Notes under the pieces: model-generated
The model's input: only the letters and a program-made list of their open reading frames with translations
Told to the model about the DNA's origin: nothing
The model's database searches: none
Shown here: piece by piece, positions 40,700 to 61,443 of the stretch
Numbering within the stretch: the first letter of the stretch is position 1
How the letters are laid out: every line of letters starts with the position of its first letter
Assembly (NCBI GenBank): GCA_030141605.1
Contig: JAQGDQ010000196.1
Location: 248,001 to 312,000 of the forward strand
Direction: 5' to 3'
DNA: 64,000 nt
Source of the DNA: Tubiluchus corallicola
Taxonomy: Eukaryota > Animalia > Priapulida
Position numbers and translations under genes: made by a program

Positions 40700-43547
40700 C
40701 TGAAATGTAACAACAAATGTTTTACGTTTAATGCAAACTATGAAATGGCAAAGAAAATATTTGTCATTGATTAAGATATTTCATGCCATAGTAGATTTCA
40801 GGAATTAAAAGAAAATCAGCGTAATTAAATATCAAATAGTGCTGTCGAAAGTTTGTTGGATACACCCAAGTTGAACACCAAATAATGGCACTTCAACATA
40901 AATAATTAACTATAGTAAAAGTTAATATAGTTACAAGTCATAATAGTACCAATTGCATACAAGATAATGATACATCAGCATACAATAATAGTCGGGATAT
41001 TGATGAAAAACTTACCGTGGTACCACCACCTAGTCTTCTTTGGATTTTTGTTGCATGTGCGTACATAAAATGTGTTATCAGGTGGTCGTTTCTGCAACAA
41101 ATGAAGGATAAATTATGACATTTTACTCGCATTGGAGGATCTGACAAAGCTAAACCATATCTAGAAGTACCTGTTCAATTATTTTTTATATTCTTGCATT
41201 TTTCATCAGAAGACATTTTTACGAAAAGTCACATATAAGTCAAAAGCTTCATAATGTTGATCATTAACAAGGTTTACCCGCTAAGCAGATTCTCCCACCC
41301 CTGGCCCGTCAGAAGTGCCTTAGTCAAGTTTGAATCTACGAGATAAATAGCCAAACTCAGTATGGTGAATGAAACCCACTCAAAGTAAACGATGGCAGTT
41401 ACACATCCATGAGTTGGCCAACCTTGGTGTTGCTTAACTTTTATTGCAAAGCACAGGCGCATGACCACTAGCCTATTTCCCTGAAATTTCACGTGTATTT
41501 TTCTCAATGTAGCTGACCAATGTATTTACAACTTCATTTACTGATTACTAATTACTGATTTTTTTACAAACCTTTTCCTTGCAGCTGCTTAGCATACTGA
41601 CTATACTTAAACAGATAGATTGTACAGAAAGCGCTGGTGACCAATCCTCTGTCAAGATGGATAGACAAATGTGGCCATTACTGTAGACATGTGGATGCAC
41701 AGGAATGTGATTACCAGTGAAAACTACCTGTGGTAAAAATGCAGAAGTTCACTAAAATTCAGGAAAACGAAGACGTTTGTGGCTTCCTAGTTTGTCTACA
41801 AACAAAGAAACCCAGTGTTCCTGGTTTAAAAATCCTCCGAGGAATTTTCCAGCACAATTATAGAGCTTACAAATCAATTTCGTCCTACTAAGCACAAAAA
41901 GTAGTGCCCAGCAGCAGAAGAAAAACTTCTGGCACTCCAACCATTTAATGTTTTCATTTTTGTTTCGTGGGTGAAGACACAAATTGTGCATGTTTTTTGC
42001 GTCCCTGAGACCGACTTTCCCTTTTCAACAAGAGGGGATAAAGATAAATGATTTTTTTCTAAAAATCACCCGGAGTTTGATTTGCAGTACTGACCAGAGT
42101 AACTTTTCTATGTATGAGTTGTGCATAACACGACAGTCCTAAAACATTCAGCTCCAGCATTAAAAATTGCAAAGATTATAAAAGACATAGAACACTGTCA
42201 CAATAATACAATCGGCATTTAGAGAAACGCTACTGTTTCTCCCAAAATTTTCGATCTACTAAGCCACACGATACAATACACATGCCGGTAAGTAACAACA
42301 TTTGCTTTTTTTCTAGATTGTATGTAGTAATTAGGACAGCTACGATGATTTCTGACTAGGCAATTTTGCTGCATTTTGAAAACTTTTGTTAATGTCGGAT
42401 TAGTAATTAATAATTAACAGTAACTGAACTTTAGACGAATCTTGCACCCTTTCACCCTTACGCCCGGGGGCAATTGCTCCCTCTCGCCCCTACCTTGCTA
42501 TGCCCCTGGCTACAGCAAAAGGTTGCAGGCAAAATTCCTTCACGCAAAATCAGGTGCAAATACACGACAATAAATCTCGCTTGATACAAAGAGCTACAAA
42601 GACCATTTAGTAATCTGCCGGGAAGCAAAAACATACATAATAATTATGCTGTTTTATATTATCAGTGAGTTTTTAGGACATAATAATGCAATATGTACTG
42701 CTTTAATGCTTAAAATTAAATAAGAAAGTTGTTGATGAAATAAAAATGGTTTTGAGCAAAGTAAAAAAAATTGTCGTTAAAACGAAACATGAGTTAAGTG
42801 AGAAAAAGTGTCAAATGTTCAGCATTGTTACGTCACAAAAACAGGAGTTATTAAACGAGGTCTTACTGTATATGACTTTCAAAATTTAATTTACATAATA
42901 CTTTATTTCATCTTTTGGATCTTAATGCTCTTTAAGAAGATGGAAGAAACTGTTTAAGGGAAATAAAGCTCTGGAGTAATTACCTCGGGTGAATCAAATG
43001 GATACCTATTACTAAATTTGAATAGTAGTTGAAAGCGTTCTCCCTCATACAGAGTACCTGTAGCACCTTCCATTTCTATTGTCCACCTATAATCATACAT
43101 AAGTAACTATGTAAAATAATGAAGGCAGGGCCAACCATGCAAAATTTCATCTGCAGACCATACAACAAAATACCCTTGAATTTCTATTCCAAATCTTAAC
43201 TTTATAGATACACAGATCCAGTTATGAAAAACCAGGTCAATAAAGTGCAATTCATAATAAGTTTACATATAGCCGTATTTATACTCATCAACATGCAATT
43301 ACAAGTTAGATCCCAGATGAAACCTTTACACGGATATCTAGGTTTCTGCACACTTAATGCCCACACAACTATAAACTCGCAATGATTTGCACAAAACACT
43401 AAAAACTTTTCAGTGTAGAACATTTTTACTAAAATAAAGTTTTGAAGACAATGTCAGTACATACGTGTGTAGACTGTGGTCTGCATTAACTTTTATCCCA
43501 GGAGGCGGATCTCGTACAAGTGTTGACAGCTCCTTCTGTAGTCGTTT
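40686..43547 (-). CDS. UBE2W: Ubiquitin-conjugating enzyme E2 W; five coding exons, start exon not located
   Basis: Exons 43547-43465, 43086-42984, 41727-41572, 41091-41016, 40699-40686 with GT-AG boundaries and consistent phases. KRLQKEL...DPPPG...YPFDSPE...HPHVYSNGHICLSILTEDWSPALSV...KRPPDNTFYVRTCNKNPKKTRWWYHDDKV*. HPHVYSNGHIC is diagnostic of UBE2W. Confidence 0.96.
41016..41091 (-). CDS. UBE2W: UBE2W coding exon (KRPPDNTFYVRTCNKNPKKTRWWYH)
   Basis: tgcag|AAA...G|gtaag, 76 nt. Confidence 0.95.
41572..41727 (-). CDS. UBE2W: UBE2W coding exon with the catalytic Cys
   Basis: cacag|GTA...AAG|gtttgt, 156 nt. VVFTGNHIPVHPHVYSNGHICLSILTEDWSPALSVQSICLSIVSMLSSCKEK. Confidence 0.96.
42984..43086 (-). 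CDS. UBE2W: UBE2W coding exon (WTIEMEGATGTLYEGERFQLLFKFSNRYPFDSPE)
   Basis: tatag|G...GAG|gtaatt, 103 nt. Confidence 0.95.
43465..43547 (-). CDS. UBE2W: UBE2W coding exon (KRLQKELSTLVRDPPPGIKVNADHSLH)
   Basis: aacag|AAA...AC|gtatgt, 83 nt. Confidence 0.93.
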
Positions 43548-45129
43548 CTGTTAAATTATTATTGTTATATTAGCTTAATATGTTACAACTGTTGTACGAT
43601 ATTACATTGGACACAATAATTCACGAATTCTTATTAAAAAAGTTTAGACGACAATGGTGGTTACAGCCTATACTAGTAAAATAGTGACCGTGACTAGTAG
43701 CTACTAACTATTTAAAAGCTTAATGCATTTGAAACAATATTTGATCATAATTTCGACAACTGTGACCTTCTATAACATTCTAATTTAAACAAGTACAGAC
43801 AGCAATAAGCCTTTTATGCTATAAAGTGATGCCAGGACTCTCTTAATTCTTTTTAGGCAGTTTCACGCTTTTAATAATTTAGACCACTTGTGCACCTACT
43901 AATGATTAATGATGACATACGGGCTCGTTTTTGTGCCTTGTAAATCCACTAATGGTCACCTGCCTGCAGATTGAGCCAAGTAAAACAAGGGTAGTAAAAT
44001 ATTCCCTTGGGTCAAATAAGGGACCAACTTGGAAACAAACATTTAGTTAGGAAAAATATGAGACTACTCGCTGGAGACATCATCTTTAATGATAAGAATA
44101 AAAAGTCCATGAGCTTTATTAGAATCAGAAGCAGATATTCTTTATTGCCAAAAGATTTTTTAAAAATCTGCTTTAAAAACTAATAAAGGGCATTCAACTT
44201 TTTATTCATGATAATAAACATTTAGATCCTTTAGGTAAATATTATCCCTGGTCTATACCCAAAACAAGCTTTTTACAGTAAGTTGCTAACCCAACCAAGT
44301 ATACTTCAACTGTGGTTTCTTTACTGCCACAGAGCTACTACTGGCTTTCAGTACTATCATGTTTACTCTCAAATAAGGATAAGTTCGACGAAAGACGCAA
44401 GATACTTGAATTTTCTGAAACTACCTTCTCACATGGTAATGGAAAAACCAGGGCTGTCTCTCTCTCCTAGTCAATGCAACTGTGCTTTTCCTGTGTTTCA
44501 TTTGTTGTGCCTCTGCAACTTTAATACGTGATTGTATGCTTTTATGTGTGATGTTTTTATTTGTAAATAATATAAAGAAACCAAAAAATTGGTTTTAGAA
44601 TCTTTATGTGTTTCCCCCTTTTTATTTCAAGTCTTGTGTCTTTTTATTGTATTAATTGTGGGATTTTTTAATAATCAGCAAGGTGTGCAACTGGCTAATA
44701 ACCACTAAAAAGAATTTCAACTAATTAAATAAATTCTTTCCTAGGATTAGGAAATTAGGTGTTTCACAAATCTAACTCAGCCAGCACATGCATGGATATC
44801 ACTGACAAACTGTATGTCTGTTCTCCATCACATAAATATGACAAACCAGTTATTAAAATTTAATGCAGAATTGAAAATATTACGGTTAACCTGTTTTTTA
44901 CTCAAATACAGCCAAAGTTATACAACACACTTACATAAACTAACACTAGCTCAACAGTACCATATCAAGGCCTTGCTCAAACGAATATCAAGTACCTGGC
45001 ATAAAAGAGTTTTTCAACAACCATGAACAACAGCAAGTACATTTGTACATGAGTACATCTATGGAATATTTGGCAAAATCCATATGGGCTGACAAAATCC
45101 TTACTTCAAAAGTTGAAAGAGTGCTAGCA

Positions 45130-45620
45130 TACAAAAGATGTTTTTAGAGCACTCGGTGCTTGTTTAAAAGACTTGACATTGGGGGCATTAACAATACCAC
45201 TGCTTAAACTGTTCCATTCCTGCACAACACGGTAGGAGAAAAATGCTTGCTGATATGTGTGCATGAATGCTGAATATATAGTTTTTGCTAATGACATCAA
45301 TGTAACTCTCTATGAGGATTCTCAAAGAACTCACTCCGATCCAAATTTGTGGCCGGATTCACTATCTTGAACATGCAGACAATTGTGTCATGGCTCTAAT
45401 CTAGGGTAGGAACTGATATCGTTGGCAAGACGAAGACATCTTCTTTGGACTTTTTTATCTTCTCTTTAAAAGATACAGATTGCAGTGCCCTAATAACAAC
45501 AGCATATTCCAACAAAGGACTAATCAAAAGGTTTGTATATAGGTACAGCAACTGACGGCTCAGGGCATACGACTCTCTAATGATACCAATTCTTTGTTTA
45601 GCAGTCTTACATGAGTAATA
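45130..45620 (-). mobile_element. CR1-like LINE 3' fragment
   Basis: Minus-strand translations LYTNLLISPLLEYAVVI and FSYRVVQEWNSLSSGIVNAPNVKSFKQ are typical of the CR1 ORF2 C-terminus. Confidence 0.7.
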
Positions 45621-45624
45621 TAAT

Positions 45625-48060
45625 TGTTGCTACCATATGCAGAATATCAATTGGAAGGTGCTGCATAGGAAGAGCAAGAAAGATGGTGGAATGCTTTTGC
45701 CCCCTAGTAAGGCCTACAAAAAGGTTAAGAAGATGCATTATGAGCATTTTGTGAATTCTTACAACATCATTGAATCATGACTAACACACATTAGGGAAAC
45801 AAAGGCTGTTAAAGGGCAAGAAGAATTAATGAATTTTGCAGATGACTCGAGAATGGCCCCAGAAATACTGAATCATTGACCAGTATTAACAAAATAGAAG
45901 AAATAAATAATCAGACAAATCTTTTGTGTATATTAGAGAAACTCCCAATGTACCTTTAACCAAGACAGAAAACAGAAGCATATAAAATTAGAATAAGTCA
46001 AAAATGAAGTCCAACAGTTGACAATGTAGTGCATTTTGTTTAAGCTGCAGCTTTAGAAGCAACTGATCCAGTTTTCGGTAATTTAGGGTATGCCCAGACC
46101 AAGAAAGAAGGCCCCCAGATAGTGTTTACACGGGCAGCAAAAATTAGACTCTGGTACCCTTTTCCTTATACTCGTGGGGTACGCAATTGTTAAGATTCAG
46201 TAGCAGTGAAGAGATGGTCTTTATTCGTACATAAGAACAACGACTGGCGCATTTCACCTAACCACAGCTGTTAGGCCTGTGTCACACAGAAAAAGCCACA
46301 AAAAGCAAGCCATAATCCGTAAGGTATAAAGCGTCTTCCATCTTCCGTAAGGTGCATGTCATAATTCGCAGTATGCGCCTTGCTTTGTATAACTATGCGG
46401 GAGACACAAAACTACTATATTTTAATATAATAGGTACTATAGTTTAATAGTTAAAATAATTTTACTCATTACAGAATAACAGATTGTCAGTCGCATACGT
46501 TGTATATGCATAACATGATTGACTGGCATGCTGCCTCCTGCATGTAGTATACATTTATTATATGTATTGTAGTAATATGGCAGTAGTAATTAAGTGCTGT
46601 GGGTTAAATATGCCTTTTAATGTTTATAGTACATCGATGTTATGAATTGTTTTATACGTAATTCTTATGAAATGAATTTTGCATAGAAAAGCTTAATTAT
46701 GCAAATTTTCACATTAGTGATAAGCAAAAATTCCTTATGGCAAATGAAATTAATGGCCAAAGGCTCAAAACGGCTTGCAAAGCTCCACTAGAGACCTTGA
46801 TAACATAGTTGCCCAATTCTGGCAGGTGGAAGTGTGTGAAGATGAAACCACTATTCTGAAGAAGATATCAAGATGATTATATATATATACTAATACTAAT
46901 CTGTAATAAAACATACAGAGAATGTACAGTAATAAAATGTTGTAGGAGGATTCAGTAATTCTACCTAAGGATAATCACTACCAATTGCCAACACTATTGA
47001 CAATTGATAGTGATTATGCTTAGATAAACCCAATACCATTCTGAAGCAAGTATCCTGAGCTCCCAAAAACTTACCTGTGCTCCCTGTGGCACAGTCTAGA
47101 TTGCAGGGTCGTAAAAACAAGCTACAAAATGACTGTGGAAATCTTAAATTTGCTAAATATGGCATATGCCGAGGAAATAAATGCCAAAAGTATTAATGGC
47201 AGCCCTAGAAAGATTTGGTATTAGCCTCACTTTGCAGTTAGTAAAACAAACAAGCCAGATAAAAACAAGAATTGTGTTTAATTGTGCTGTTCAATTTGAA
47301 GGTACTACTCTCAACAGGAATGTTACGCAGGGCCCTGCTTCAGGAGTTGTGCTTAAATTTAGAAAAAACCAAATAGATTTCATGGCTGATCATGAATGCA
47401 TGTTTCACCAAGCAAAGGTACTGCAGAGGATAGTGATATACAAAGATTTTTATGATGGGAAAATGGTTGTTTAAACGCATAACCAAAAGTCTACAGAATG
47501 GCCGTACACACATTCTGTGGAATGTGGTGACCAAGTGCAGCAGCTTTTGCACTCCAGAGTACTGCAAGGGATAACAGGCATTTGTATGATGAAAATGTAT
47601 TGGAAGGCCATTAACTCCGATTTCCGATGATCCCGAGGATGCAGAACCATTGAGGCCAAATCGTCTGCTTTTGGCTCACAATCACGCTTTGCTGCCACAA
47701 GGTATTTTTTGAGACTGATCGATACAAACACAAGTGACAACGCATTCAGCTCTTAGCGACAACAACAACAACAACAAAAAATAGACTATGCCAAAGAGAA
47801 ATCTCAAAGTTAATGATGTGGTGCTTGTGAAGGAGATCAGATATCTGTAGCCACTGTGAAATATGTAACAAGCTCATGATGGCCTGAAGGAGTGAAGGAT
47901 AGATTTTTGGAGCAACCCATACAGAAGCTTTGTCTTCTGAAGGGTGCTGACAAATTGCTTGTTGAACATGTTTGTCAAAATGCTCTGGTCAAGTTTGCAT
48001 TAGAGAGGGGGAGTGTTGCTGCCATATGTAGAATAGGAAGTTGGAAAGTGCTGGCCTAGT
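45625..48060 (+). mobile_element. Old, internally deleted Bel-Pao LTR retrotransposon relic
   Basis: Similar LTR starts tgttgct(a/g)ccatatg(c/t)agaata at 45625 and 48014, the second after purine tract agagggggag. Gag remnant EINNQTNLLCILEKLP...EATDPVFGNL (~45900-46086); RT remnant KTRIVFNCAVQFEGTTLN...QGP...MADHECMFHQ (~47260-47420); integrase tail RNLKVNDVVLVKE / PIQKLCLL. Confidence 0.8.
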
Positions 48061-48233
48061 TATGAATGGACTTTGTATTTGAAAGAGACCTTTACAATGG
48101 GTAGAATAATCTTCTTACACACTGCATACCTTTCAATGTAACCATTTTGGGCTGTACTCTTGCCACTAGCATCTCTTCCTCTCACATTTCTATCTTCATC
48201 ATCCTGCCTTCCCTTGCACATTTTTACTCAGCT

Positions 48234-48540
48234 TCACTGACAGACATTGCATCTCTTGCTCTGATGGCACATATAGCTGTTACAGCTGGGCTTTAAGCAT
48301 TTGAAGCAAAGTCTTTTCTTTCTGGACAGCTCCAATCTGTCTTCTGGCTTCATGGCAGCCAAGTTTGCACATTCAGTTACGAAGTGTTCACCTATGCAGA
48401 TGCTGCATGTACTAGGTCTCTTTGACTCACCTGATATTTTGAATAAAAAATTTGTTAGGCAACTTGCTTTAGCATCTTTTCTCGCCGTGAGTTTCTGGCA
48501 TCTGTTCTTTTTCGGTCTGTATATTCTAAACTGATTTAGT
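48234..48540 (-). mobile_element. Bel-Pao Gag zinc-knuckle fragment in the opposite orientation
   Basis: Open minus-strand frame with no usable start codon: ...STCSICIGEHFVTECANLAAMKPEDRLELSRKKRLCFKCLKPSCNSYMCHQSKRCNVCQ*. Confidence 0.8.
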
Positions 48541-48993
48541 AATCATTAAATTTCAGTGATCACATGGAAACCCGAGCCAAGATATCAGATCTTACCACCA
48601 TAAGGCATCATGTGATTAAGTAAAAACATAGAAGGTATCAATAGTGACTTGTATAATTCTGAGAAAAGCACACTCAACAGTTTCAGCTGAAGAAGCCCAC
48701 TGGTCAGACTGAGACTCAATACTGTCGAGATCTATTGTGGTCGTAAACATGTCAGAATCAAATTGTGATTTGATTTTAGCATATAATTTTAACAAAGCAG
48801 GGCTCCAATAGAAAGATGCATCCTTTATCTACACACTAATATAAAGAAAAGTTGAAACATACCTCCTATTCATAAAAAAATTACTGTTAGCGTCACGAGA
48901 ACAGACTAAGACCGAGCGATTTCCTGAAATGTTTTCATTTGGGAGTTAGCAGATAGCAATATTTTTATCTACTGCTGTGTGCCACAGCCTAGG

Positions 48994-49279
48994 TGTTTTG
49001 GATATAAGCACGTGGTGCCTCCTGGTGTTTGTTTTTCCTAGTTTAGACAGGTGAGCTAGGTCAGGAAATAGGCCATTGGCCTCATTTCACAGTTAGCATA
49101 TGAAAGAAGTGAGTCACCGGTATGCGGCAAAGATGTAAGTTTCATTTCTTCACATTTCGTCATGTCATATTATTATTAATTATCATTATACCAGTTACTT
49201 AATGTTTTGACGTTGGTTTAGCAGAAAGAATTTTTAATTTTTCTTCAGCTAAAACGAAGTCGAACGCATGTCGCGTACA
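48994..49279 (+). repeat. 5' LTR
   Basis: TGTTTTGG...CGTACA; 283/286 identical to 55709-55994. Contains CACGTG (49009), TGAGTCA (49110) and an intron-like segment at 49135-49248. Confidence 0.97.
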
Positions 49280-49361
49280 GTTTTATATCTCAGTCTGTGT
49301 ACCTAGAAGAGACGGCCATATTGCTTTCGAGAACAGAACACCTGGACAAGGGTAGTACAGC

Positions 49362-51600
49362 ATGGCTTCCGGGCAAGGACGAGATTTGTTGAGACTAAAT
49401 GAAGAACAGCTTCAGCAAAAAACCGTACAAGAGTTAAGAAAGTTGCTACGGGATAAGGGATTACAAGTCGCTGGAAGCAAAGCAGAATTAGTCCAACGAG
49501 TACTGGACAGCGAGATTACTGCAGAGGTAACCACGCCTACTTCAAAGAGTGAGAGTGTTAAAACGGCTCGTGACCAATCAGGCGAGGTGGGAGTGATGCA
49601 AACGGACAACACCACGTCCAGCAGTGTGAAAACTTCTGCAACAAACTTAAGCAGGTTTGATTTGCATGCCTTGAAAATTAAAGAACAGAAACTAAAATTA
49701 CAAGCCATGGAAATCAAACATTTGAGCCTGCAAAAGGCTAGTCAGGGTTCTGCTAGTTCAGATGTGGCTTCGCCTGTAGCCAAAGAAATATCAAGTGCAG
49801 AAAAGGTCAATGAGTGGATTGAAAAGTCACACAAAGATGTCACAGAAGTCTCGTCACCTGAAGGGCTCATCAAACCCGAAGCTTACGTTACTATGGCTAC
49901 CAATGATAAATACGCCATAGGTGCTCTAGTACTGGCTTCTTCGCTATGTAATGTTGGTATTACACTTAGTTTAGCGATATTAATTACAACTGGAATTTCT
50001 AAACCCATAATGACGCAGATAAGCGCCACCTTTGATCACGTGGAGCTTGTGGAAGCTATTGACAGTTCACATGTAAAAAGTCTACAATTACTAGGACGGC
50101 CCGAATTAAAGGTGACTTTTACAAAACTGCATTGTTGGAGGCTAACTCAGTTCTCAAAATTTGATTTTTGGATTCTGATGTAATTGTCCTGCAAAACATA
50201 GATGATTTATTTAGCTGGAACGAACTGTCAGCAGTTGCAGATATTGGCTGGCCTGATTGTTTTAATAGCGGACTTTTCGTTTTTGAACCTAATCTTAGCA
50301 CGTACAGTGAATTGAGGTCATTCGCTCAGTCAGATTCAAGCACATTCGACGGTGGAGAGCAAGGTCTACTAAACCAGTATTTTAAAGCCTGGAATACAGC
50401 TTTTGATAAACGATTGCCATACAGGTATAATGTAGCAGTAAAGCAGTTTCGAGAAAGTGTCAAGGTTGCTCATTTCATGGGTCCTAGTAAGCCCTGGGAC
50501 AGTATACGCAGCATTTATCACAAGCAAGTGGCGCCAGCTACAGGTAAAACAGACTTTGAATCTGAAATGTTAAATATTTGGTGGTCACTTTACATTCATG
50601 AGGTCGAACCAAACTGGCCTCATGAATTAGAACTAATAAATAAAGCTAATGTTCAGCAGCACATTCCTACCCGAACAAAACTCAGTCCTGATGCACCTGA
50701 ATTTGCCACTCGCTTACATGACAGGAGCAGTGTTCATAGAAAATTATACACATGATGACGGGGCGAGATATACCAGGCTTTTACAATTTTGCACGGGCGA
50801 AGCAAAACGGGTTGTCGAAAGTTGCAGTTATATGGACCCGCAGATCGCATACAGTCATGCTAAGCAAATGCTTATTGAACGTTTCGGGTCACCCTTTATT
50901 GTAACACAAGCGTGGTTGGCTAAAATAAATGAGTTTGCAGTCATAAAAATAATGAAAAGGAAAAACTCAGGGAATTTTCTGACTTGATGATTGGTTGTGT
51001 AGAGACATTAAAGGCCATGGACAATTTAGCCGAAATAAATACACAAACAAGTTTGCTTCAAGTCATTAAGAAACTCCCATTCCGTTTGCAAGACAAATGG
51101 AGAGACGTTGTTACCAAGTTAAATAAACATGATGGCAGAAATCCTACAATTTACGACGTGGTGGGATTTGTCAAAGAGGCGACTGAAAAAATAAACCATC
51201 CCGTGTTTGGTGACCTTGCAACCGGTGGTCAAATGAACATTACAAAACGCAAGAATAAATTAGCAACTAGGAATTTCGCATGCACTACCTTTCGAACAAG
51301 AAGTTCATCCAGAGAAGAAAAATCGAGTCAAACAGGCGGAACGCCAAAGGATAGAAAATTAAGCAGTAGAGATGTCAGAAAATGTGTTCTGCAACTCAGC
51401 CGAGCATGTTTCTCTAAAAAACTGTGAACAGTTTAAAGACAAGTCGGAAGAAGAGAGACTACAGTTTGCTCGGAAAAGTCGCTTATGTTTTAACTGCTTA
51501 CAGAAAGGGAACCAAAGAGCTGGAAGCTGTTACAAACCAGGCTGTACAAGACAGGGATGCAGAAGAAAACATTCTGCTCTGCTTCATGACGCTCTGGAGA
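49362..51600 (+). pseudogene. Bel-Pao Gag region (SAP domain, coiled coil, glycogenin domain, DUF1759-like capsid region, three Zn knuckles), frameshifted
   Basis: SAP at 49410-49508 (LQQKTVQELRKLLRDKGLQVAGSKAELVQRVLD); RYTRLLQFCTGEAKRVVESC...LIERFG; KKLPFRLQDKW...HPVFG; knuckles CNSAEHVSLKNC, CFNCLQKG...C, CTRQGCRRKHSALLH. Frame breaks near 50163, 50720, 50950 and 51385. Confidence 0.9.
49878..50611 (+). pseudogene. Captured intronless glycogenin-like glycosyltransferase (GT8) domain; a 1-nt frameshift at ~50163 in this copy
   Basis: EAYVTMATNDKYAIGALVLASSL...LLGRPELKVTFTKLHCWRLTQFSK / FLDSDVIVLQNIDDLF...DIGWPDCFNSGLFVFEP...FDGGEQGLLNQYF...LPYRYN...KVAHFMGPSKPW...LNIWW is colinear with animal glycogenin (AFVTLTTND, RPELGVTLTKLHCW, MDAD, GWPDCFNSG, FDGGDQG, VVHFLGRVKPW). 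Confidence 0.95.
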
Positions 51601-54443
51601 AGTGGGCTCCTTCCAATGGCGAGAGGTCAACAAATGTTGAAGCAACAAGTTGCGCTGTCACTACAACCAAACTGTCAACAAGGGCTGTGCTCCCCATCAC
51701 TCCTGTAAAGGTACAGGTGCAAGGCGGACGTCCAATTCAGACAATGGCTTTGTTGGACCCAGGATCAACTAATACGTTCTGTTCCAAGGCCATATATGAT
51801 GAGCTGGGAGCTGTTGGCAAGAAACAAGTCGTGTCACTGACTACAATTGAAAAGAAGCATTCAAAAATACATACTTCTGTGACCAAGATGTACGTCAGTA
51901 AGTTGGATGGATCAAACAAAATGAAACTTCCCTTTGTCTTTGTCAGGCCATCTTTGATGTTGGATGTGACTGACTATTTGGTAGACGAACAAGACATTAG
52001 TAACTGGCCTCATCTCAAAGATGTTCCTTTGACGCTAGCTGATTCACGTGAACTGCAGCTCGGGTTAATTATAGGACAAGACGTCTCTGATGCATTAATG
52101 CCTTTAGAAACACGCTGTGGGCCAAGAGGAGTTCCGTATGCAACAAGGACTAGACTTGGATGGACATTAAATGGCCTGATAGGAGGCGGCAATGAGGACA
52201 CTAAAAAGCTGTCAAACAACCTTCTTCAGGCAGAACAGGTTACCAGCCAGCGACAAGTCGAAAAATTTTGGAAAATGGACGCTGTTGACGATAGCATACA
52301 GTACTCCCATGACGATAAGTTGGCGCTGAGCATTTGGGAGAAGTCCATCACCAAAAGAAATGGTCACTACGAATTGGAGATACCTTTTAAGTCTAATGAT
52401 GACAACATTCCTGACAGTTTTCAAATGGCTTCAAAGAGGTTGGCAAGCCTTCGCTGTAGACTCAGCAAGAATAAGTTGTTGCATGAAAAATACTCCCAAG
52501 CCATGGCTGATCTGCTCCAAAAGGGATACGCAGAAGAAGTTGTTGAACATGATACGAATGTTGCAACATGGTACTTGTCACATTTTCCAGTTTTTAATGA
52601 GAACAAACCCGAAAAAACTAGGATCGTATTTGATTGTTCGGCAACAGAAGACGCAGTCTCTCTCAACATGTTGGCACTACAAGGTCCAGATCTGACTAAT
52701 AAATTGCTTGGTGTCCTGCTATGCTTTAGAAAGTATCCAGTAGTAATCATGGCTGATGTTCGTGAGATGTTTCACCAGGTGTACGTAGCACCGAAGAATA
52801 GGGACATGTTGAGATTTCTCTGGTGGAATGATGGAAACCTAGATGCGCCACCCTCCATATTTCGAATGACAGTCCACCTTTTTGGCGGTGTGTGGTCGCC
52901 CAGCGTAGCTTCATTTGCTCTCCAACAGACAGCTAGAGATAACGTCAACTGTTTTGATGAGCATGCATTAAATACGGTGGTACATAGCTTCTATGTCGAC
53001 GACCCCTTTAAATCTGTGGAAACTGCAAAAGAACCAATCGATTTGATGTCAAAATTAATACAGATTCTAGACACTGGAGGTTTCCACTTGACCAAATGGA
53101 TGAGTAACGACAGAGACGTATTAGCATGTGTGCCAATTGAAGAACGAGGAAAGAACATTAAGAATCTTGATCTAACCCAGGACGATCTACCAAATGAACG
53201 AGCCTTAGGGGTTAAATGGGATGTCAAAAGCGATATACTTGGCATTCAGGTTAAGCTGCGAGAAAAGCCAAGCACCAAGCGGGGACTACTTAGGTCATTA
53301 GCAAGCACCTATGATCCCCTAGGCATGGTCTCGCCTTTCATTTTACAAGCGAAAAGACTGTTTCAGAACGAATGCCGGATCCAGGAAAAATCATGGGATG
53401 ATAGACTGGAAGAAGAGACTGAGAAAAGTTGGGATAAATGGAAATCTGATTGTCCTGCACTAGAATACTTTACGCTAGACAGATGCCTGAAGCCAAGAGA
53501 TTTTGGAAGAATTGCTGACTTGCAGCTGCATCACTTCAGCGATGCATCCCAGTATGCTTACGGCACTGTAACTTATGCACGGATGGAAAATGCTGATGGA
53601 GTTGTACACACAGCATTTGTAATGGCAAAGTCTAGGCTAGCACCTATGAAAAGCCTAACCATACCACGCCTTGAGTTGTGCACAGCAGTATTAGCCTCAA
53701 CTGTCGACAAACAACTGAGAAGAGAATTGTCCATACCCATCAGCGAGTTCGTGTTTTGGTGTGACAGCACTATAGTGCTTCAATACATACGCAACACCAC
53801 AAGACGTTTCCATACTTTCGTGCAAAATAGAGTGACTACCATACTAGAAACTTCGTCGCCAGTTCAGTGGCATTATATCAGTACCGCAGATAATCCAGCT
53901 GATGACGTATCCCGAGGAATGGACGCCAATGCCTTAGTAAAATCTCAGCGTTGGAAATATGGTCCTAGTTTTCTGCGAAAAGCCCAACATGAATGGCCGC
54001 AGCATGATCCGAGCAAAGAAAATGATGAACTTAACGACGATAAAGAAGTCAAGCAGACGACATGTTCCACTACTGTAAAACACATACAGGATAGAAACGA
54101 CACAATTAGCAAGCACATTGAACATTTTTCGTCATTTTACAACCTCAAGAAAGCAGCAGCTTGGATTCTTCGTCTGAAGGACATTTTGCAAAAGAAGATC
54201 AGAGGAGAAAAACCTGAAGTACCTCCAAAGTTAACAGTGCAAGAGCTGACAAGAGCTCAAGATGCATTAGTAAAATTCGTTCGGACTCAGAACTTTGGCA
54301 TGGAATATAAGGCGCTTACACAAAAATCTGCTAAATTGATGCGCATCCCTAAATCAAGCAGGCTACGAAAACTTGATCCGTTCATTTGCGAGAAGGGTTT
54401 GCTACGTGTTGGTGGACGACTGAAGGCGCCAGGCACCCTATGA
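51372..54443 (+). CDS. Bel-Pao polyprotein segment: Zn knuckles, aspartic protease, reverse transcriptase, RNase H
   Basis: ALLDPGSTNTF; KTRIVFDCSA...QGPDL...MADVREMFHQ...HLFGGVWSPS...FYVDD; LHHFSDASQYAYG, TIPRLEL, WCDS, NPADDVSRG; GLLRVGGRL. Confidence 0.95.
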   Translation: MSENVFCNSAEHVSLKNCEQFKDKSEEERLQFARKSRLCFNCLQKGNQRAGSCYKPGCTRQGCRRKHSALLHDALEKWAPSNGERSTNVEATSCAVTTTKLSTRAVLPITPVKVQVQGGRPIQTMALLDPGSTNTFCSKAIYDELGAVGKKQVVSLTTIEKKHSKIHTSVTKMYVSKLDGSNKMKLPFVFVRPSLMLDVTDYLVDEQDISNWPHLKDVPLTLADSRELQLGLIIGQDVSDALMPLETRCGPRGVPYATRTRLGWTLNGLIGGGNEDTKKLSNNLLQAEQVTSQRQVEKFWKMDAVDDSIQYSHDDKLALSIWEKSITKRNGHYELEIPFKSNDDNIPDSFQMASKRLASLRCRLSKNKLLHEKYSQAMADLLQKGYAEEVVEHDTNVATWYLSHFPVFNENKPEKTRIVFDCSATEDAVSLNMLALQGPDLTNKLLGVLLCFRKYPVVIMADVREMFHQVYVAPKNRDMLRFLWWNDGNLDAPPSIFRMTVHLFGGVWSPSVASFALQQTARDNVNCFDEHALNTVVHSFYVDDPFKSVETAKEPIDLMSKLIQILDTGGFHLTKWMSNDRDVLACVPIEERGKNIKNLDLTQDDLPNERALGVKWDVKSDILGIQVKLREKPSTKRGLLRSLASTYDPLGMVSPFILQAKRLFQNECRIQEKSWDDRLEEETEKSWDKWKSDCPALEYFTLDRCLKPRDFGRIADLQLHHFSDASQYAYGTVTYARMENADGVVHTAFVMAKSRLAPMKSLTIPRLELCTAVLASTVDKQLRRELSIPISEFVFWCDSTIVLQYIRNTTRRFHTFVQNRVTTILETSSPVQWHYISTADNPADDVSRGMDANALVKSQRWKYGPSFLRKAQHEWPQHDPSKENDELNDDKEVKQTTCSTTVKHIQDRNDTISKHIEHFSSFYNLKKAAAWILRLKDILQKKIRGEKPEVPPKLTVQELTRAQDALVKFVRTQNFGMEYKALTQKSAKLMRIPKSSRLRKLDPFICEKGLLRVGGRLKAPGTL

Positions 54444-55563
54444 TATTACCGAGAAAGCATAAGCTGTCAGAGCTAATCATTCGTCATTACCACGAAACGA
54501 ACGGCCACATTGGCAGGGAACATGTCATAGCTTTAGTAAGAAATGAATTTCGGATAATTCATGCAAGAGCCTTGGCACGCAAAGTCCTGTACGAATGCCG
54601 ACATTGCAGGCTTCGCAAGCCATCTTTCCTTGATCAAAAGATGGCAGATTTGCCTATTGACAGACTACAGCCATCAGACGCTTTTACCACTATTGGCATT
54701 GATTGTTTTGGCCCGATACAGACCAAGAGAGGTCGCTCACACATTAAACGCTATGGAGTCATCTTTACATGCCTAGCTACACGCAGTATTCACTTGGAAG
54801 TCCTATTTGACATGTCCACTGATTCGGTTATAAAGGCGATTAACAGATTTTGCTGCCGCCGAAGGAAGCCAGACAAAATCAGGTCAGATTGTGGGACTAA
54901 TTTTGTAGGAGCAAGCAGAGAGCTGAGAAAGTCTATAGCCGAGTGGAACAATGACGTCATACATTCAGAGCTTCTTCAGCGGCAAATAGAATGGCAATTC
55001 AACCCACCAAGAGCCCCACACATGGAAGGTGTTTGGGAGTCTCTCATTAAGAGTGTGAAGAAGATTCTCTTTCCAACGAACAAACCTTGGATGATGAAGG
55101 CTTGGCAACCCTGTTTTGTATAGTTGAAAATATAGTTAATAGCAGACCGCTAACTACAGTTTCTGACGATGTTGACGACTTCAATCCGTTGACTCCGAAT
55201 CACTTTCTTCAGATCAGCGCAGTTCCAAACCTGCCTTTGGGAAAGTTTTGTCAGGCAGATCTCTTTCGACGAAAGTGGAGACAAATACAGTATCTCTCGG
55301 ATATCTTTTGGCGCAGATGGTTGACTGAATATTTGCCCACTCTACAGACTCGAAGCAAATGGAACAAGGAGCAGAAGAATGTTGAAATAGGAGACATCGT
55401 ATTAGTTCTGGATGAGACACCAAGGAATCACTGGATGCTAGGACGGATCATTGAAGCACGGAAAAGCAGTGATGGACTAGTGAGAAGTGTGATGTTGAAG
55501 ACTAGAGATGGGACTCTAAAACGACCAATTCATAAAATAAGTTTAATCGAATGTAACAATTAG
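54430..55563 (+). pseudogene. Bel-Pao integrase (HHCC, DDE core, DUF5641-like tail), split by a frameshift at ~55075
   Basis: HPMILP, HETNGH...CRHC, GIDCFGP, RSDCGTNFVG, GVWESL, VNSRPL, FWRRWLTEYLPTLQTRSKW, RPIHKI. Confidence 0.93.
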
Positions 55564-55708
55564 TTGATTTTGTTAAGCATTCATAAACTGTATGTTTAAG
55601 TTAAACTTTGAAGTAGATGTATGTCAATTTAGTCAGTCATGATATGTTATTACACTGTTGGTTTCCTTTAATTTTGTAAATGCTGCAGGAGAGCATTTAA
55701 GGAGGCAG

Positions 55709-55994
55709 TGTTTTGGATATAAGCACGTGGTGCCTCCTGGTGTTTGTTTTTCCTAGTTTAGACAGGTGAGCTAGGTCAGGAAATAGGCCATTGGCCTCAT
55801 TTCACAGTTAGCATATGAAATAAGTGAGTCACCGGTATGCGGCAAAGATGTAAGTTTCATTTCTTCACATTTCGTCATGTCATATTATTATTAATTATCA
55901 TTATACCAGTTACTTAATGTTTTGACGTTGGTTTAGCAGAAAGAATTTTTAATTTTTCTTCAGATAAAACGAAGTCGAACGCATGTCGTGTACA
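55709..55994 (+). repeat. 3' LTR, preceded by a polypurine-tract-like aaggaggcag
   Basis: Direct repeat of the 5' LTR, followed by TSD CTAGG. Confidence 0.97.
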
Positions 55995-56644
55995 CTAGGT
56001 AATAGGAATGCTTCAGAAAAAAGAACCAAACTGTAAACACTGAAAAGTTAAAAAGAGCTTCAGATGAATTTTTTCAATGTGCGCCATTTTACAGTGTCTG
56101 TGTGGGCCAGTAAGTGGCGTACTCTACCGGCGTTGTTTTGTAACTTTTGATTTTCTTTCGAAACGCGGCACAAATAGCAAAGAAGGGTTGCAGTTTATAC
56201 AATGAAAATTGGAACATACGATACTTTGAGGCTTCATACTGTACAAAAAATATGACTGTATGAAGAAGAAAGCCAATGTTCTAGCACATTAAGTGCTTGT
56301 TAAGAACAATAATTTTCTTGCTTGTAGTCCTTCGTTGTTTTGAATACATGACTTTTTGTATCATGCAACTTTGAAGGTTTTTGACTTTCCAGCAGATTTC
56401 ACTTTAAAGATGTTTTCACGTGTCAGCTCCAAGATGCGTAAAGATTAGGAAACTTGAAACTTTGAAGCCCTGTACATTTCCTTGAGTACTGTTTCTTTCA
56501 GTTGCTCAGCACATATATACACTCACATACTGACTGACCTTACTGACTAACCAGCTAACTAGCTATGATTTACTTAGTGTCGGTTAGTTATTTAATTAGT
56601 TAGTGTTGGTCTAGCTAAGCTAATCAGAGAGTCAATCAATTAGT

Positions 56645-56770
56645 TTTGGCAATTTTGTGGTATGGCAGGTTTGGTGGTATGGCAGGTTTGGCGATATGGC
56701 ACATTTAGCACTATGGCGGTATAGCAGGTTTGGCAATGTGGCATTTGGCGGGTGGTGTTGGTATGGGAAG
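56645..56770. repeat. Degenerate GGTATGGCAGGTTTGG minisatellite
   Basis: Five to six imperfect ~17-bp units. Confidence 0.7.
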
Positions 56771-56899
56771 GAGGTAGAGTGTCGACAATGGGACTGATAT
56801 AGGAAGGTAGAAGGGTGTTAGGGTGTGAGGAAAACCACCTAAACTGCAAGTGCGCCACAATGGCCCGAAATAAAGACCACCGAGCATTCCCTTTGGAAT

Positions 56900-58720
56900 G
56901 CCGCTATGAACATTAATCCACTCATAGATAATACATTTAAAACTCCTGACAAAGACAATTTGTTACCTAGAGTCTTAATTGATACAAAGGATCACATTTC
57001 AGCCCCTTTAGCACATGTTATAAACTTATCCCTCGAAAATGGATGTATTCCTAATAAGCTAAAGGAGTCGGTAATTGTTCCTTTGTTTAAAGCTAAGAAC
57101 CCTATGGACTTGAGGAATTATAGACCCATCTCCCTCCTACCATTTTTTCTAAAATTTTTGAAAACTTTTTGAGTTCAGTTGTCAGATTACCTAAACAAAA
57201 AAAAATATTATTAATACAGAACAGTTTGGGTTCAGGAAAGGTTGTTCAACTGAAATAGCTTTAGTTAAAATTGTAGAAAACAAAATAATTAAATACAGAA
57301 GGTAAAAAAGGTCACTTGGTATTTTTTGCTACCTGTCAAAAGCTTTTGACTCGGTCGATCATGATATACTACTATCAAAACTATTTTACTATGGAATCAG
57401 GGACAAGGCTCATCAGCGGTTAGAAAATTACCTTAAAGAGCATACACAAGTAGTTAAATATAATGGTTGTTTCTCTTCAGAAAAAATATAACTCATGGTG
57501 TGCCGCAAGGGTCAATTTTGAGACCACTTTTGTTCTAAATATATATAAATGATTTATTACATTTCCTAATTAGTTCTGTGGAAGTTGTAACTGTATATTT
57601 TTAGGTGCTGCCATCTATTAACTAATCACTTTACATTTTACCAGCTAAACTCACCCATAATATAATTGTTCGGTCCAGTGAATATGCATACTCACTGGAT
57701 CTCTCCCTATTTTACTGTAATGGTATTTGTGAAGCCAAGTTTGCATAATTACCTATACCTATATATACTGACTGGATTCTACTTCTAGTCACTCTCTGTC
57801 TCACTCTCAATGCAGTGCAGAAGTCATGCTAGTCGTGCTACACAACTGTCTAACTCACACTCTGTGCAGTGCAGCAGTCGTGATCCTCATTTTACTTACT
57901 GTCTAACTCTCAGTGATCAGTGCAGGACATTCTTGTCCTCAGTGTGCAGTGTAGCAGTCATTCTACATATGTGTATGTAGTCTAATAAATGTTTCAGTTT
58001 TGTGCAGATATGTGGTATAGTGTTTTATTCTTTTTCTACAAAGTGTTCAACTACAACTTCATACAAGACTTTCACAAGTTCCAAAATGATTCAATATGCT
58101 GACGACACTAGCCTCCTTTTTAATATTAATCAGTTCAATGCGCAAAACACAGACAAGATAAATGATGAACTCGAACAAATTCCTATGTGATTCAAAATTA
58201 ATAAGCTTTCCCCAAATCCGTCAAAAACTAAATACATTGTTTTTAGGTCGCGTTATAAAAATATTCTAAGTAATATTGACATCAACATAGCTCAGGTGCC
58301 CATAACATGAGTAAATGAAATGAAATTTTTAGGTGTAATCATTAATGAATTTTTAGATTGGCAAGCACACATTAATAAGCTATGAGTTAAAATGTCTAAA
58401 AACATAGGAATTATTTAACATATAAAACAATATACTTCCAAAAAAACATATGATTTCACTATACAGTAGTCTTGTTTTGCCATATCTGACCTACTGTGCA
58501 ATCCTGTGGGGTACAACGTATGCCAGTGTGTTAAACAGTATGACAACGCAAATGCAACCGTCAGATGTATAACTTACGGAAAAGATTCCAGATAGGCAAC
58601 AATTATTTCAATGAAAACAGAATTTTATTATTTGATAATTTAGACAAATGATTAAAAATAGCCCTTCCGTTAAAAAATTTGAAGAAACATTTAAACTACA
58701 AAACTTCAACTTGTATAGTA
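56900..58720 (+). mobile_element. Decayed LINE (CR1/L2/Crack-group) reverse transcriptase region, interrupted by a solo LTR
   Basis: NYRPISLL, QFGFRKG, LSKAFDSVDHDILLSKL, GVPQGSIL, IYINDL, then after the insertion YADDT, KFLGVII, LPYLTYCAILWG; multiple stops and frameshifts. Confidence 0.9.
57577..58076 (+). mobile_element. Solo LTR (500 bp) inserted in the LINE RT
   Basis: TGTGGAAGT...ACTTTCACA inverted termini; 5-bp TSD AGTTC (57572-57576, 58077-58081); TATA-like run ~57760 and AATAAA at 57984; LINE frame resumes after it. Confidence 0.85.
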
Positions 58721-59779
58721 CTTCATAGTTTTTTCCCTTCCTCTTAACCCAGTAAAGTTCATCCTCTGCAATATAATCATTATTTGTTATTTCAGTTCTA
58801 GGTTAATATACCATTGGCAGTCACAGCATGATGCTAGCCATGGCGTATTCGTATAACGTACGCAATTATTATTAATTATCATTTACTGAATTCATTATTA
58901 CATATGATTGCACGTCGGCACTATCATAATAACTATAATTCTCACATCTTTTTCTGTTCTTTTCTCGTTTTAACCATAACATTTTTTACTTATTCCTGTT
59001 CTACATGCTTTTGTATATAAATTCTCCTCCTTATTTCTATTTCACATTCAGCCATTCTTACATTTACAAGCTATTAGTATTAATAAGCTTCTTGCTGCAG
59101 TGGTGTTATCATGAATTGATACTAATATTTATAACTATATCCGTTAATTTCAACTAAATCACACAATGATGTACATTATATGTACGTAAAATGTATGTTA
59201 CTAGTATGGTAATTACTATTTATGTGAAATAAATAAGTAAAATTGAAAAAATAAATAAAATTGAAACTCTACGTTACCTCCTGCAAGAAAAGAACTAAAC
59301 CAAGAAGATTAAATCTCAAAAAGCTAAATAAATAACAGTAAACATCAAGCAAAAAAATAAACTCAATAGAAAGACGCGAGTTCATTAAAAAATGTATTAA
59401 AGAAATGTATCTATTGTTCACTGACCTGCATTGACGCCATACTTTTTTGCTGTCAGCAGTGTGAATTTCGTCAACGCACCGCGTCGACAATCGTAACTCA
59501 CAATTCCTTTATTCATTTAAAAACATAGAGGTATATACAATTATTTATGGCCGTTATAAACGAAATATTGATTTCCAAGAAAACTGTTACTCCGGGAATT
59601 ATTTATTAATGAAGTTTTTAAATTTAGCTTAAAAACAAGATAGTGCTTTTTTGTTACGTGCATTGGTCATAATCGTGAAGAAGTCAAAGTCTCGAAAAAT
59701 TGATGTGAAAAAAACTTTTTGAGACTTAGTGGGCACTTTGACTTCTTTGCGATTATGTTTTCAAATTTATTAACAATGC

Positions 59780-61443
59780 AAAATATATAATTATGCTGAC
59801 AATAGGCCGTTATAAGCAGGACAGAATGTGCTCCAAACATTAAACAAACTAGATTCTAATTGTAGCAAAGTGTTGAACTGGTTTGAAGATAATAGCATGA
59901 AAGCAAATTCAGAAAAATTCCACGTTGTTGCCATTGGAAATAAATCACAAGCACTAAATCTAAACTTCGACATTGACGCAAAAAATCAAAATTAATGTGA
60001 CAATCAAATAAAAATCTTGGGTACATGTTTGCAAAATCCAATATAAAAACAAGTAGAAGTCCTTCCTAACTGTAAGTAGAAGAATTGCAGCATAATTTAT
60101 TATTTATATCATTCTTTCACCCTGTTAAAGGAAAAGCGGATAATTGTGTAAACATTAGTTCAGAATAAAGAATGCTCTAAAGTGATGAAAACTACAAAAG
60201 CTTTTTTTAAATCAAAGCTTAGATTAAATAATAATTACCTCGCATACTCAAATTTCGTTAAACTTTCAAAGCCACGCGCGGCTCAGTGATTCTTCTAAGA
60301 TTGGCAGCGGCGCGTTTTTGTCACGTTAGCGTGGTCGATAAATAGAAGGCGGTACCATGGTAACAATGATCATGAACTACAGTGTTAGTTTCTCACGTCA
60401 TATGGATGTAGAGCCCATTTTCGTGACATCATACGTTTAAGCAGTAACACTTACGCAAACGTGCTTAACGCGCAAGGGAGATGTCTGCCATTGCACAAAC
60501 TGTATTAGTTTCTGACGTAAGCAATAGCTGCGTTCGGTTGCCGTTAATTAACTTTCTAAGCTAATTATTCAAATATAAGAAACATTTGCTAACTTTGTAG
60601 GCAAGAAAATGTGTATTTTGGACAGTAAATTAAAATGAGATTGAGTCTAAACAATCGTCCAGCCTTCCTTTAAAGTTTAATTACTGTCTGCCTGTATGGC
60701 ATTTTAGTAGTTACGCAGTAACGAACAAACGTGAAAAAATTTAAGAAAGGGCACTGAGATTTACCTACAGTGATTATGCCTTAAGTTATGAAACATGCTA
60801 AACAAATTTAAAAATTCGTTAATTCTTTGCGTATAAGAACTTTAGCCTTAGAAATATTTAAAATTCTAAACAAAGAAGGAGCTAGCTACTTATACGACCT
60901 GATGGCAATTAAAGAATCTAAGTATTCATTCCGATATATTAAAATTACAAATGTACCACGCATCAAATGCACTAAATACGGCTAAACTCTGCGACATTCT
61001 GCCGCAGTTCGCGGAATCAATTGCCAAACGATAAGCGAAATGCTTAATGTAGTTATGAACTTATGGTATGTTTCAAAATATAAATTCGTGGAAAGATGAC
61101 GAATATAAATGTACTGCATGTCGCAGAAATTGAAAATTTTATGGTTCTGATTAAGCTGTACTTCCAAACTATGAACTGTTTTCGAATGTGATTTTAACTC
61201 GATTAATTAAAGGCGTTGATTTTAGCATCTAAGTTAGCATTTATGATTTTAAAGTCTGCTAGGATCCAAAGTGTTTTATTGTAGCAGTATAATTGTAAAA
61301 TCTTTTTATCGCCTAAGCACTATTTTTACTAGTAGACTGGCTTTGTAATATATGTCGGCTTAAAAGTTATTAGGAGTTAGTGTTTTTTGTGTTTATGTAA
61401 AACCCGACTTTAAATAAAATTTGATTTATTTTGATTGATTTGA
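59780..61443 (+). mobile_element. Decayed LINE (Crack/L2/CR1-group) 3' part with a (TTTGA)-type tail, interrupted by a MITE
   Basis: YNYADN..., VLNWFEDNSMKANSEKFHVVAIG, IKILG; resumes ~60685 with CLPVWHF...ERALRFTYSDY...CTKYG; ends aataaaatttgatttattttgattgatttga. Confidence 0.75.
60125..60673. mobile_element. TTAA-flanked MITE (Kolobok-like) nested in the LINE
   Basis: TTAA|AGGAAAAGCGGA...TCCAGCCTTCCT|TTAA imperfect terminal inverted repeats. Confidence 0.65.

Follow-up and report, generated by a model that had tools for sequence, protein, structure and literature searches.

A stretch of 64,000 nucleotides from the genome of the priapulid Tubiluchus corallicola (contig JAQGDQ010000196.1; the whole stretch is called the window here, and all coordinates are positions within it) contains a Bel-Pao long terminal repeat (LTR) retrotransposon of 7.0 kb, whose Gag region includes the catalytic core of glycogenin. 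Bel-Pao LTR retrotransposons constitute the Belpaoviridae. Glycogenin initiates the synthesis of glycogen; this enzyme dimerises and puts a short chain of glucose on its own arm, and its C-terminal tail recruits glycogen synthase. In the element, the glycogenin core lies at 49878–50617 within Gag, where it follows the SAP/coiled-coil part and precedes the capsid region. The copy of the element in the window is decayed, and the glycogenin domain is probably a feature of the element family.

Structure of the Element

The element lies on the plus strand and is bounded by two LTRs of 286 bp (48994–49279 and 55709–55994), which form a direct repeat, have TG...CA ends and differ at 3 sites. Outside them is an identical target-site duplication of five letters, CTAGG (48989–48993 and 55995–55999), and a purine-rich tract (55699–55708) precedes the 3′ LTR. 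No primer-binding site was recognised by eye after the 5′ LTR, no host tRNA set having been compared. A scan of 44000–60000 against Rfam found nothing.

Gag starts at the Met codon at 49362. Its N-terminal region (49362–49877) comprises a SAP domain (49410–49508; Pfam SAP, E = 7.9e-9), a Ser-rich linker and a Lys/Glu/Leu-rich helix, which by eye is a coiled coil; at 49587–49880, the frame of the Gag Met alone stays open. The glycogenin core follows, and then a Gag linker (50618–50735) with the sequence LSPDAPEF (50681–50704), which we take to be a PAM2-like motif, i.e., a contact for poly(A)-binding protein. The capsid region with its zinc knuckles (50736–51590) was located by tblastn of related elements and by Pfam on those relatives, in which it corresponds to DUF1759; the capsid piece had no meaningful match in the PDB. 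Protease (LLDPG), reverse transcriptase (YVDD) and RNase H occupy 51591–54425 (Pfam Peptidase_A17, E = 1.2e-47), followed by integrase and DUF5641 at 54426–55563 (Pfam, E = 2.8e-30). This order of Gag, protease, reverse transcriptase, RNase H and integrase, with the Pao-specific Pfam families Peptidase_A17 and DUF5641, is that of a Bel-Pao element. The LTRs, the target-site duplication, the Pao families and the domain order bear out the first-pass annotation (made from the sequence before this analysis), which had called the element Bel-Pao and had placed a glycogenin segment between the SAP/coiled-coil region and the capsid.

The reverse transcriptase/RNase H region is 51–57% identical to the best relatives and clusters with 16 of them, including 3 that bear SAP (SH-like support 95). 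The tree had 53 rows, all Bel-Pao and without an outgroup. Among 1337 long relatives, each of the best 120 is a single Gag-Pol polyprotein with 40–46% identity over pol; those with names belong to echinoderms, nemerteans, a crustacean, cnidarians and a fish. An N-terminal SAP domain occurs in 4 of the 120, and a loose PAM2-like match, counted without a chance control, in 44 of the 120, about 90 amino acids ahead of the capsid motif. The PAM2-like motif may be a general, little-noted feature of Bel-Pao Gag.

The Glycogenin Domain

The glycogenin core is present in two halves. The N half (49878–50162) aligns to residues 4–101 of human and rabbit glycogenin-1 in the PDB (E = 1.6e-21; residues ~4–100 in the numbering of human GYG1) and is in the same frame as Met 49362. 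The C half (50165–50617, residues ~100–266) aligns to residues 100–268 of rabbit glycogenin-1 (E = 1.2e-36) and matches Pfam Glyco_transf_8 (PF01501; E = 1.9e-10). Thus, the claim that the domain is in frame with the Gag start is right for the N half, whereas the C half lies in another frame after a break near 50163. The catalytic core, of the GT8 type, is closest to those of glycogenins: over the core, identity reaches at most 55%, to a protein designated P0001 (60% for the N half), and is ~50% to molluscs and insects.

The DxD (LDSD), GWPDCFNSG, AHF and KPW motifs are all present, as had been claimed. In residue numbering taken from the alignment with 1ll2, the equivalents of DxD (50171–50179), Trp128, Asp160, Gln164, His212 (50471–50473) and Lys218 are retained, KPW beginning at 50489; in glycogenin, DxD, Asp160, Gln164, His212 and Lys218 have catalytic or metal-binding roles, DxD and the His being metal ligands. 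In these residues and in its catalytic core, the domain is like animal glycogenin (GYG1; CAZy family GT8). It differs from animal glycogenin in being intronless, without a tail and fused inside Gag, in having Glu in place of Asp163 and, in the window copy, in having lost the acceptor arm. Compared with glycogenin proteins, the translation of the element is without the C-terminal WExGxxDY tail that binds glycogen synthase, and the statement that the domain ends before this tail was correct.

In a quick tree, unfinished and made from 71 chosen rows, the domain is placed on a long branch beside P0001 (SH-aLRT, the Shimodaira–Hasegawa-like approximate likelihood ratio test, 90), among glycogenins of molluscs, nemerteans, annelids and cestodes. 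This position fits an animal (spiralian-group) source, without naming it. The branch length of 1.23 obtained for the domain was set aside, as it comes from the same unfinished tree. The profile and protein comparisons and the tree that had been proposed as checks confirm homology to glycogenin and group the domain with animal glycogenins. Single-sequence fold prediction of the C half was unusable (predicted local distance difference test score 41.5), and the ESM Atlas had no usable match for the domain.

Lesions of the Window Copy

The window copy is a dead, decayed member of its family. Relatives align to it in changing frames, which places frame breaks near 50735, 50946, 51390, 54425 and 55070; the break near 50163 brings the number to six. 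The open frame through Gag, the glycogenin domain and Pol that had been envisaged does not exist in this copy. The first break (50160–50170) separates the two halves of the glycogenin core. The second, at the end of the Gag linker, goes with a loss of ~55–80 codons: the distance from the PAM2-like motif to the capsid is 28 codons in the window copy, compared with 82–107 amino acids in the 12 relatives that match both patterns. Due to this second break and loss at the start of the capsid region, the C half terminates at a stop codon (50753–50755), and the domain is therefore not joined in frame to the capsid or Pol in this copy. The breaks near 50946 and 51390 lie in the capsid and zinc-knuckle region, and those near 54425 and 55070 in the part encoding integrase and DUF5641.

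The domain had been described as colinear with the whole catalytic core of glycogenin, which is not so. Apart from the break near 50163, 10 codons have been deleted in frame from the acceptor arm, which leaves an alignment gap at 50429–50440: the spacer is 10 amino acids long in the element, compared with 20 in 107 of 108 glycogenins matched by pattern and 22 in the remaining 1 of 108. The equivalents of Tyr195 and Tyr197 would lie here, and the acceptor Tyr195 has gone from the window copy along with the lost codons. According to parts of a published account, Tyr195 is the site of self-glucosylation of glycogenin and its loss blocks the priming of glycogen [see PMC12267440]. In addition, the equivalent of Asp163 is read as Glu (50357–50359). 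With Asp163 altered, and the acceptor tyrosines lost in the window copy, enzyme activity of the domain appears doubtful. The first-pass annotation had overlooked the loss from the acceptor arm, the replacement of Asp163 and the fact that the window copy is dead.

Origin of the Domain

The genomic glycogenin loci used for comparison (L080, L015 and L029) came from metagenomes. They have introns near amino acids ~48 (L080, L015), ~106 (L029), ~161 and ~203 (both L080), and the element is without all four, in agreement with the earlier description of the domain as intronless. The gene at L029:997-1842 has a single intron in its catalytic core. Homology of the element to glycogenin starts in the codon of the first intron of L015 and ends at the end of an exon of L080; however, the edges of the catalytic domain itself coincide with those exon edges anyway.

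The absence of the four introns, the absence of a poly(A) tract and of an edge duplication, and the missing 3′ half of the glycogenin gene support capture of the domain from a spliced mRNA, as had been proposed. There is no run of at least five A residues at 50581–50760, and the edges of the domain show no target-site duplication above chance level, the longest edge repeat being 8 bp. An 8-bp repeat found on both sides of the domain, CACCTGAA, was rejected as a candidate duplication, as its occurrence is at chance level (~0.15 expected) and its two copies are not at the edges. Loss of the 3′ half is the opposite of what is seen in a processed pseudogene made by a long interspersed nuclear element (LINE). 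A LINE-inserted processed pseudogene, for which a poly(A) tract, its own target-site duplication and an intact 3′ end would be expected, was therefore rejected, and with it the possibility, raised with the original claim, that the domain is such a pseudogene inserted later. As judged from these features, capture from a spliced mRNA inside a retroelement particle fits better than a LINE-made retrocopy. Host mRNAs are captured within retroelement particles, and it is this mechanism that would apply here.

Other Copies in Public Sequencing Runs

Four public sequencing runs (X1–X4), from two samples and two studies, each contain at least one third of the words of the element; X1, X2 and X4 are from one sample, and one of the four may be the source of the window itself. 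The data are short assembled contigs, and the results given here are from the best-supported 40 of 493 differences, 12 of 84 insertions or deletions, 15 of 31 joints and 32 of 1917 pieces.

Depth is continuous over the whole element in all four runs. A contig in X3 is identical to the window over 49875–50233, so that sequence reads, too, contain the break near 50163. At 50161–50163, all of the depth in X1 and X2 belongs to a second version of the domain that lacks the frame break. The depth of this version is about that of the pol contigs (16.6 compared with 16.6–17.8 in X2; 298 compared with 328–336 in X1). At the acceptor-arm gap, contigs in X1 and X4 carry extra letters, in a listed stretch too short to reveal a Tyr. 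One contig of X4 (record 23, 50441–50676, with 3 differences) spans the 3′ edge of the domain into the Gag linker. The existence of the domain in more than one copy is therefore supported by contigs from two studies, whereas its linkage to the rest of the element is seen only at the 3′ junction. Contigs in X1 and X2 at 53916–54787, without gaps, share the integrase break of the window copy, so the haplotypes of these contigs are defective too.

The pol contigs differ from the window by 1.6–3.3%, and differences in the domain are about equally dense. Among the best-supported differences, 5 of 9 in the domain are synonymous, and the other 4 (in 3 codons) give the residue of host glycogenins. Outside the domain, the synonymous share is 3 of 3 in the capsid, 1 of 12 in the Gag linker and 2 of 8 in pol. 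The comparison of 5 of 9 in the domain with 3 of 20 in the Gag linker and pol (Fisher P = 0.07) is drawn from a biased sample, since the differences were chosen by support. The simplest reading of the runs is that each sample has two or three haplotypes of the element, all with the domain, and that the window copy has private lesions. The glycogenin domain is thus probably a feature of the element family.

Run depth far above that of pol was observed at the LTRs, 49200–49870 and 50730–51000. The commoner version there has a one-letter gap near 49588, and its differences are mostly non-synonymous. This suggests that many non-autonomous derivatives are behind the high depth in these regions.

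Possible Selection on the Domain

In an alignment of 99 host glycogenins, 75 columns have the same residue in at least 95% of the rows; at 9 of these 75, the residue of the element is not that of most hosts. Among the hosts themselves, the median number of departures is 0; the nine rows of the spiralian group have 0–2, and 2 of the 99 hosts reach 9. The 9 changes at these columns are conservative, with a mean BLOSUM62 score of 1.22 compared with −0.92 for simulated neutral change (P = 0.0003). The signal holds (P = 0.007) after the two most conservative changes are dropped as changes in the host lineage, and a column threshold of 90% gives the same result. Conservative changes of this kind suggest that the fold has been maintained while selection was relaxed or shifted; they are not proof of catalysis. 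On balance, selection on the fold seems rather more likely than not, and catalytic activity in the element family is something we would rather doubt than assume.

A gradient of identity across site classes (88/60/33/14%) was considered as a further signal of selection and dropped, as host divergence together with uniform change accounts for it.

Relatives and Known Systems

The Bel-Pao relatives most like the element in organisation are P0028, P0043 and P0062, which bear SAP and are marine, and the Asterias cluster P0016. They share its Gag, protease, reverse transcriptase, RNase H, integrase and DUF5641 order, the PAM2-like linker and production as one polyprotein; they differ in that they have no glycogenin domain. 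Production of the domain at the stoichiometry of Gag, which had been put forward as a consequence of its position, adds little, since these relatives make Gag and Pol as one polyprotein.

Searches for further fusions of this type were word-limited, so that blanks in them are weak. A rescan of 24 related polyproteins with Pfam found no other host enzyme ahead of the capsid. From the glycogenin side, a Gag-glycogenin fusion was found in none of 15 matches of 479–2000 amino acids, none of the best 150 of 1936 representatives (40 proteins from these two sets rescanned with Pfam), none of 18 glycogenin-type proteins of 1788–5000 amino acids (7 rescanned with Pfam) and none of the viral contigs. By blastp, 0 of 180 glycogenin-type proteins were matched by any of the 120 Pao polyproteins, and 0 of 80 metagenome glycogenin loci were matched by 12 Pao polyproteins. 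P0153, P0197 and P0224, which have the domain at a Gag-like offset, were rejected as fusions, as they turned out to be host glycogenins whose N-termini are long. Within the reach of these searches, the capture would be lineage-specific. One predicted protein (P0156) combines glycogenin with FHL-type LIM domains; the join could be genuine, or the product of a chimeric assembly.

In the literature, searched by title and the start of the abstract and with Repbase and most subscription journals outside the search, no LTR or Bel-Pao element with glycogenin or a glycosyltransferase was found, and nothing of use emerged on GT8 genes of viruses. No word beginning with "glyco" occurs in the main text, as accessible, of surveys of Bel-Pao and LTR elements [PMC3118150; PMC8556966; PMC6238403]. 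The earlier remark that no LTR element with this enzyme had been described agrees with the protein collections and papers searched. Apparently, a Gag-borne glycogenin is undescribed, and represents a real capture of a host gene by an LTR element, not an artefact.

Three known systems resemble the element in part. Burro/GYPSM1, giant Gypsy-like elements of planarians, carry MATH-TRAF, SUMO-like, BCL2-like and BIR domains in frame in the polyprotein, according to parts of their description [see PMC6431247]. They are alike in having host-like domains in frame within the polyprotein of an LTR element, and differ in belonging to another superfamily, in having regulatory domains placed after the Gag capsid and knuckles, in having no sugar transferase in the parts described, and in being present in thousands of copies. 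The same source notes that LTR elements capture extra open reading frames downstream of pol [PMC6431247]. These, too, are host genes between LTRs, but as separate reading frames after pol, whereas here the captured gene is inside Gag. Polyproteins of endornaviruses and hypoviruses, in the sections of the reports available, carry glycosyltransferase domains [PMC3647011; PMC6992542; PMC10224137]. As in the element, a glycosyltransferase has been captured into the single polyprotein of an RNA replicon, with a function that is likewise unsettled. In contrast, these domains are GT28, UGT or DXD-type GTS, are partly of bacterial origin and belong to RNA viruses of plants and fungi; they are neither GT8 nor glycogenin, and are not in a Gag.

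Possible Function and Alternative Explanations

In the explanation that we favour, the element family captured the core of glycogenin in frame from a host mRNA, and selection has since maintained it as a module tethered to Gag, which would pair Gag molecules and glucosylate itself; taken as a whole, we hold the prospects of this explanation to be even. Capture would have occurred by a template switch onto a co-packaged spliced mRNA during reverse transcription, and the domain would have entered the variable stretch of Gag that separates the coiled coil from the PAM2-like linker. The domain would be translated as part of the single Gag-Pol polyprotein and could fold as a glycogenin dimer, thereby adding a contact between Gag molecules. 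In copies that keep the arm, self-glucosylation could place short α-1,4-glucan chains on the particles. Dimerisation and self-glucosylation are the weakest steps of the proposal. Particle proteins, host-defence proteins and glycogen had been put forward earlier as possible targets of the domain. With its tail absent, the module would be uncoupled from glycogen synthase. The glucan chains could tie the particles to the glycogen stores of germ cells, a link that is weaker than the explanation as a whole. More tentatively still, and to our minds unlikely, Gag with its tail-less glycogenin would glucosylate either itself or a host protein, and glucan-coated particles would ride maternal glycogen into the egg or evade disposal.

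Several observations weigh against Gag-tethered glycogenin kept by selection. The six breaks leave the window copy unable to make the fusion. Residue 163, Glu in the window copy, is Asp in 173 of 173 proteins and in 73 of 73 loci that match the pattern. The open, stop-free frame of the domain is not evidence of selection, because any insert upstream of Pol in an element with a single reading frame must stay open. When the element is compared with P0001, identity by site class is as expected of a host-type gene to which 8.7% of uniform change has been added (P 0.11–0.49), and the conservative signal fades (P = 0.06) once four or more of the changes are assigned to the host lineage. Neither Pfam nor a profile built from 119 glycogenin cores (best E = 1) found the domain in any of the 120 related polyproteins, so it is not clade-wide. 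In the runs, the 5′ junction is bridged by none of the contigs listed; a high-depth X1 contig stops at 49874 and the X3 contig begins at 49875, and some copies may lack the domain, parting from the window copy at this point. Finally, the depth of the domain is 1.45–2.0 times the median depth of pol in runs X1–X4; the surplus corresponds to roughly one haplotype and could stem from a host gene or from derivatives without pol.

Many of these observations would be expected if the domain, once captured in frame, were tolerated as a passenger or had a structural role only. It would then be silent in catalysis and bring no benefit, and would be carried along since Pol lies downstream and its fold must not poison the polyprotein. 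The replacement of Asp163, a state found in 0 of 173 hosts, the fit of the site classes to uniform change, the 120 of 120 relatives without the domain and the contig ends at 49874/49875, with the copies free of the domain that they may represent, all point in this direction, as do the six changes never found in hosts, which look neutral (BLOSUM scores −1, −2, −3, 0, 2 and −2). Such a passenger would not, however, be expected to retain most of the catalytic and metal-binding residues or to have an excess of conservative changes at invariant columns, and 740 extra bases of Gag that were of no use would be expected to have been lost. We regard a passenger or structural module as the main rival, though somewhat unlikely.

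The excess depth in 4 of 4 runs also bears on whether the domain might exist only in this defective lineage, having entered it by a single recombination with a host mRNA or by insertion at a later time. The version without the break would then be the host's own glycogenin gene, unusually divergent or intron-poor. Differences rich in synonymous changes and with host-type residues are expected of a host gene, L029 shows that a glycogenin gene can have one core intron only, and the shared integrase break makes the X1 and X2 haplotypes defective too. On the other hand, the domain has no poly(A) tract and no significant edge duplication and lacks its 3′ half, its differences are about as dense as those of the pol contigs, and the X4 contig passes from it into the Gag linker. 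Furthermore, contigs of the second version cross the intron position at amino acid ~106 (as their inferred ends indicate), and a host gene with 8–9 changes at invariant columns would be unlike the nine rows of the spiralian group. Restriction to this lineage is improbable. Least probable by far is an assembly chimera of the element with a glycogenin retrocopy: the lack of a listed contig across the 5′ junction is what such a chimera would give, but the open frame continues from the SAP domain into the glycogenin domain, an X4 contig spans the 3′ junction, none of the runs shows an interruption of depth along the element, and the LTRs and target-site duplication are clean.

Neighbouring Sequences

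The element is nested in another repeat (48794–48993 and 55995–56266): contigs join its two flanks with other letters between, and there are loose ends at 48794, 48850 and 56266. Just upstream are heavily decayed pieces of other Bel-Pao elements (45694–46118 and 46760–47900 on the plus strand, 48078–48518 on the minus strand), comprising capsid, reverse transcriptase, a DUF5641-like end and a zinc knuckle. Downstream, at 56843–58500, lie the probable remains of a reverse transcriptase of LINE type, which by eye resembles CR1/L2 (NYRPISLLP, a PQGSILGP-like motif and YADD).

Elsewhere in the window, an exon of a Ras-family GTPase (29203–29364, plus strand) and an exon of a ubiquitin-conjugating enzyme (41551–41748, minus strand) are those of an animal-type genome. 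An acidic open frame of 305 codons (4307–5224, plus strand), with short repeats near its end and no Pfam match, is probably one long exon of the host. A dispersed repeat occurs at 13958–14330 and at 36141–36527, the two copies being ~75–83% alike in pieces, with a weak third match near 60484.

Significance of a Gag-Borne Glycogenin

Host genes known to have been picked up by LTR elements are mostly separate open reading frames after pol, or regulatory domains; here, a metabolic enzyme lies in frame inside Gag, ahead of the capsid. If the domain is a passenger, the variable N-terminal part of Bel-Pao Gag would be a slot that tolerates a whole folded enzyme. If it has been kept by selection, it would provide a natural tail-less glycogenin with altered active-site residues, in which it could be studied how the choice of acceptor shifts, and the retrotransposon particle would be able to use a sugar-transfer fold, in parallel with the glycosyltransferases of endornaviruses and hypoviruses. 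Should the reading of glucan-coated particles prove true, this would be the first LTR element with a glycosyltransferase of its own, and the first link between retrotransposition and the metabolism of glycogen.

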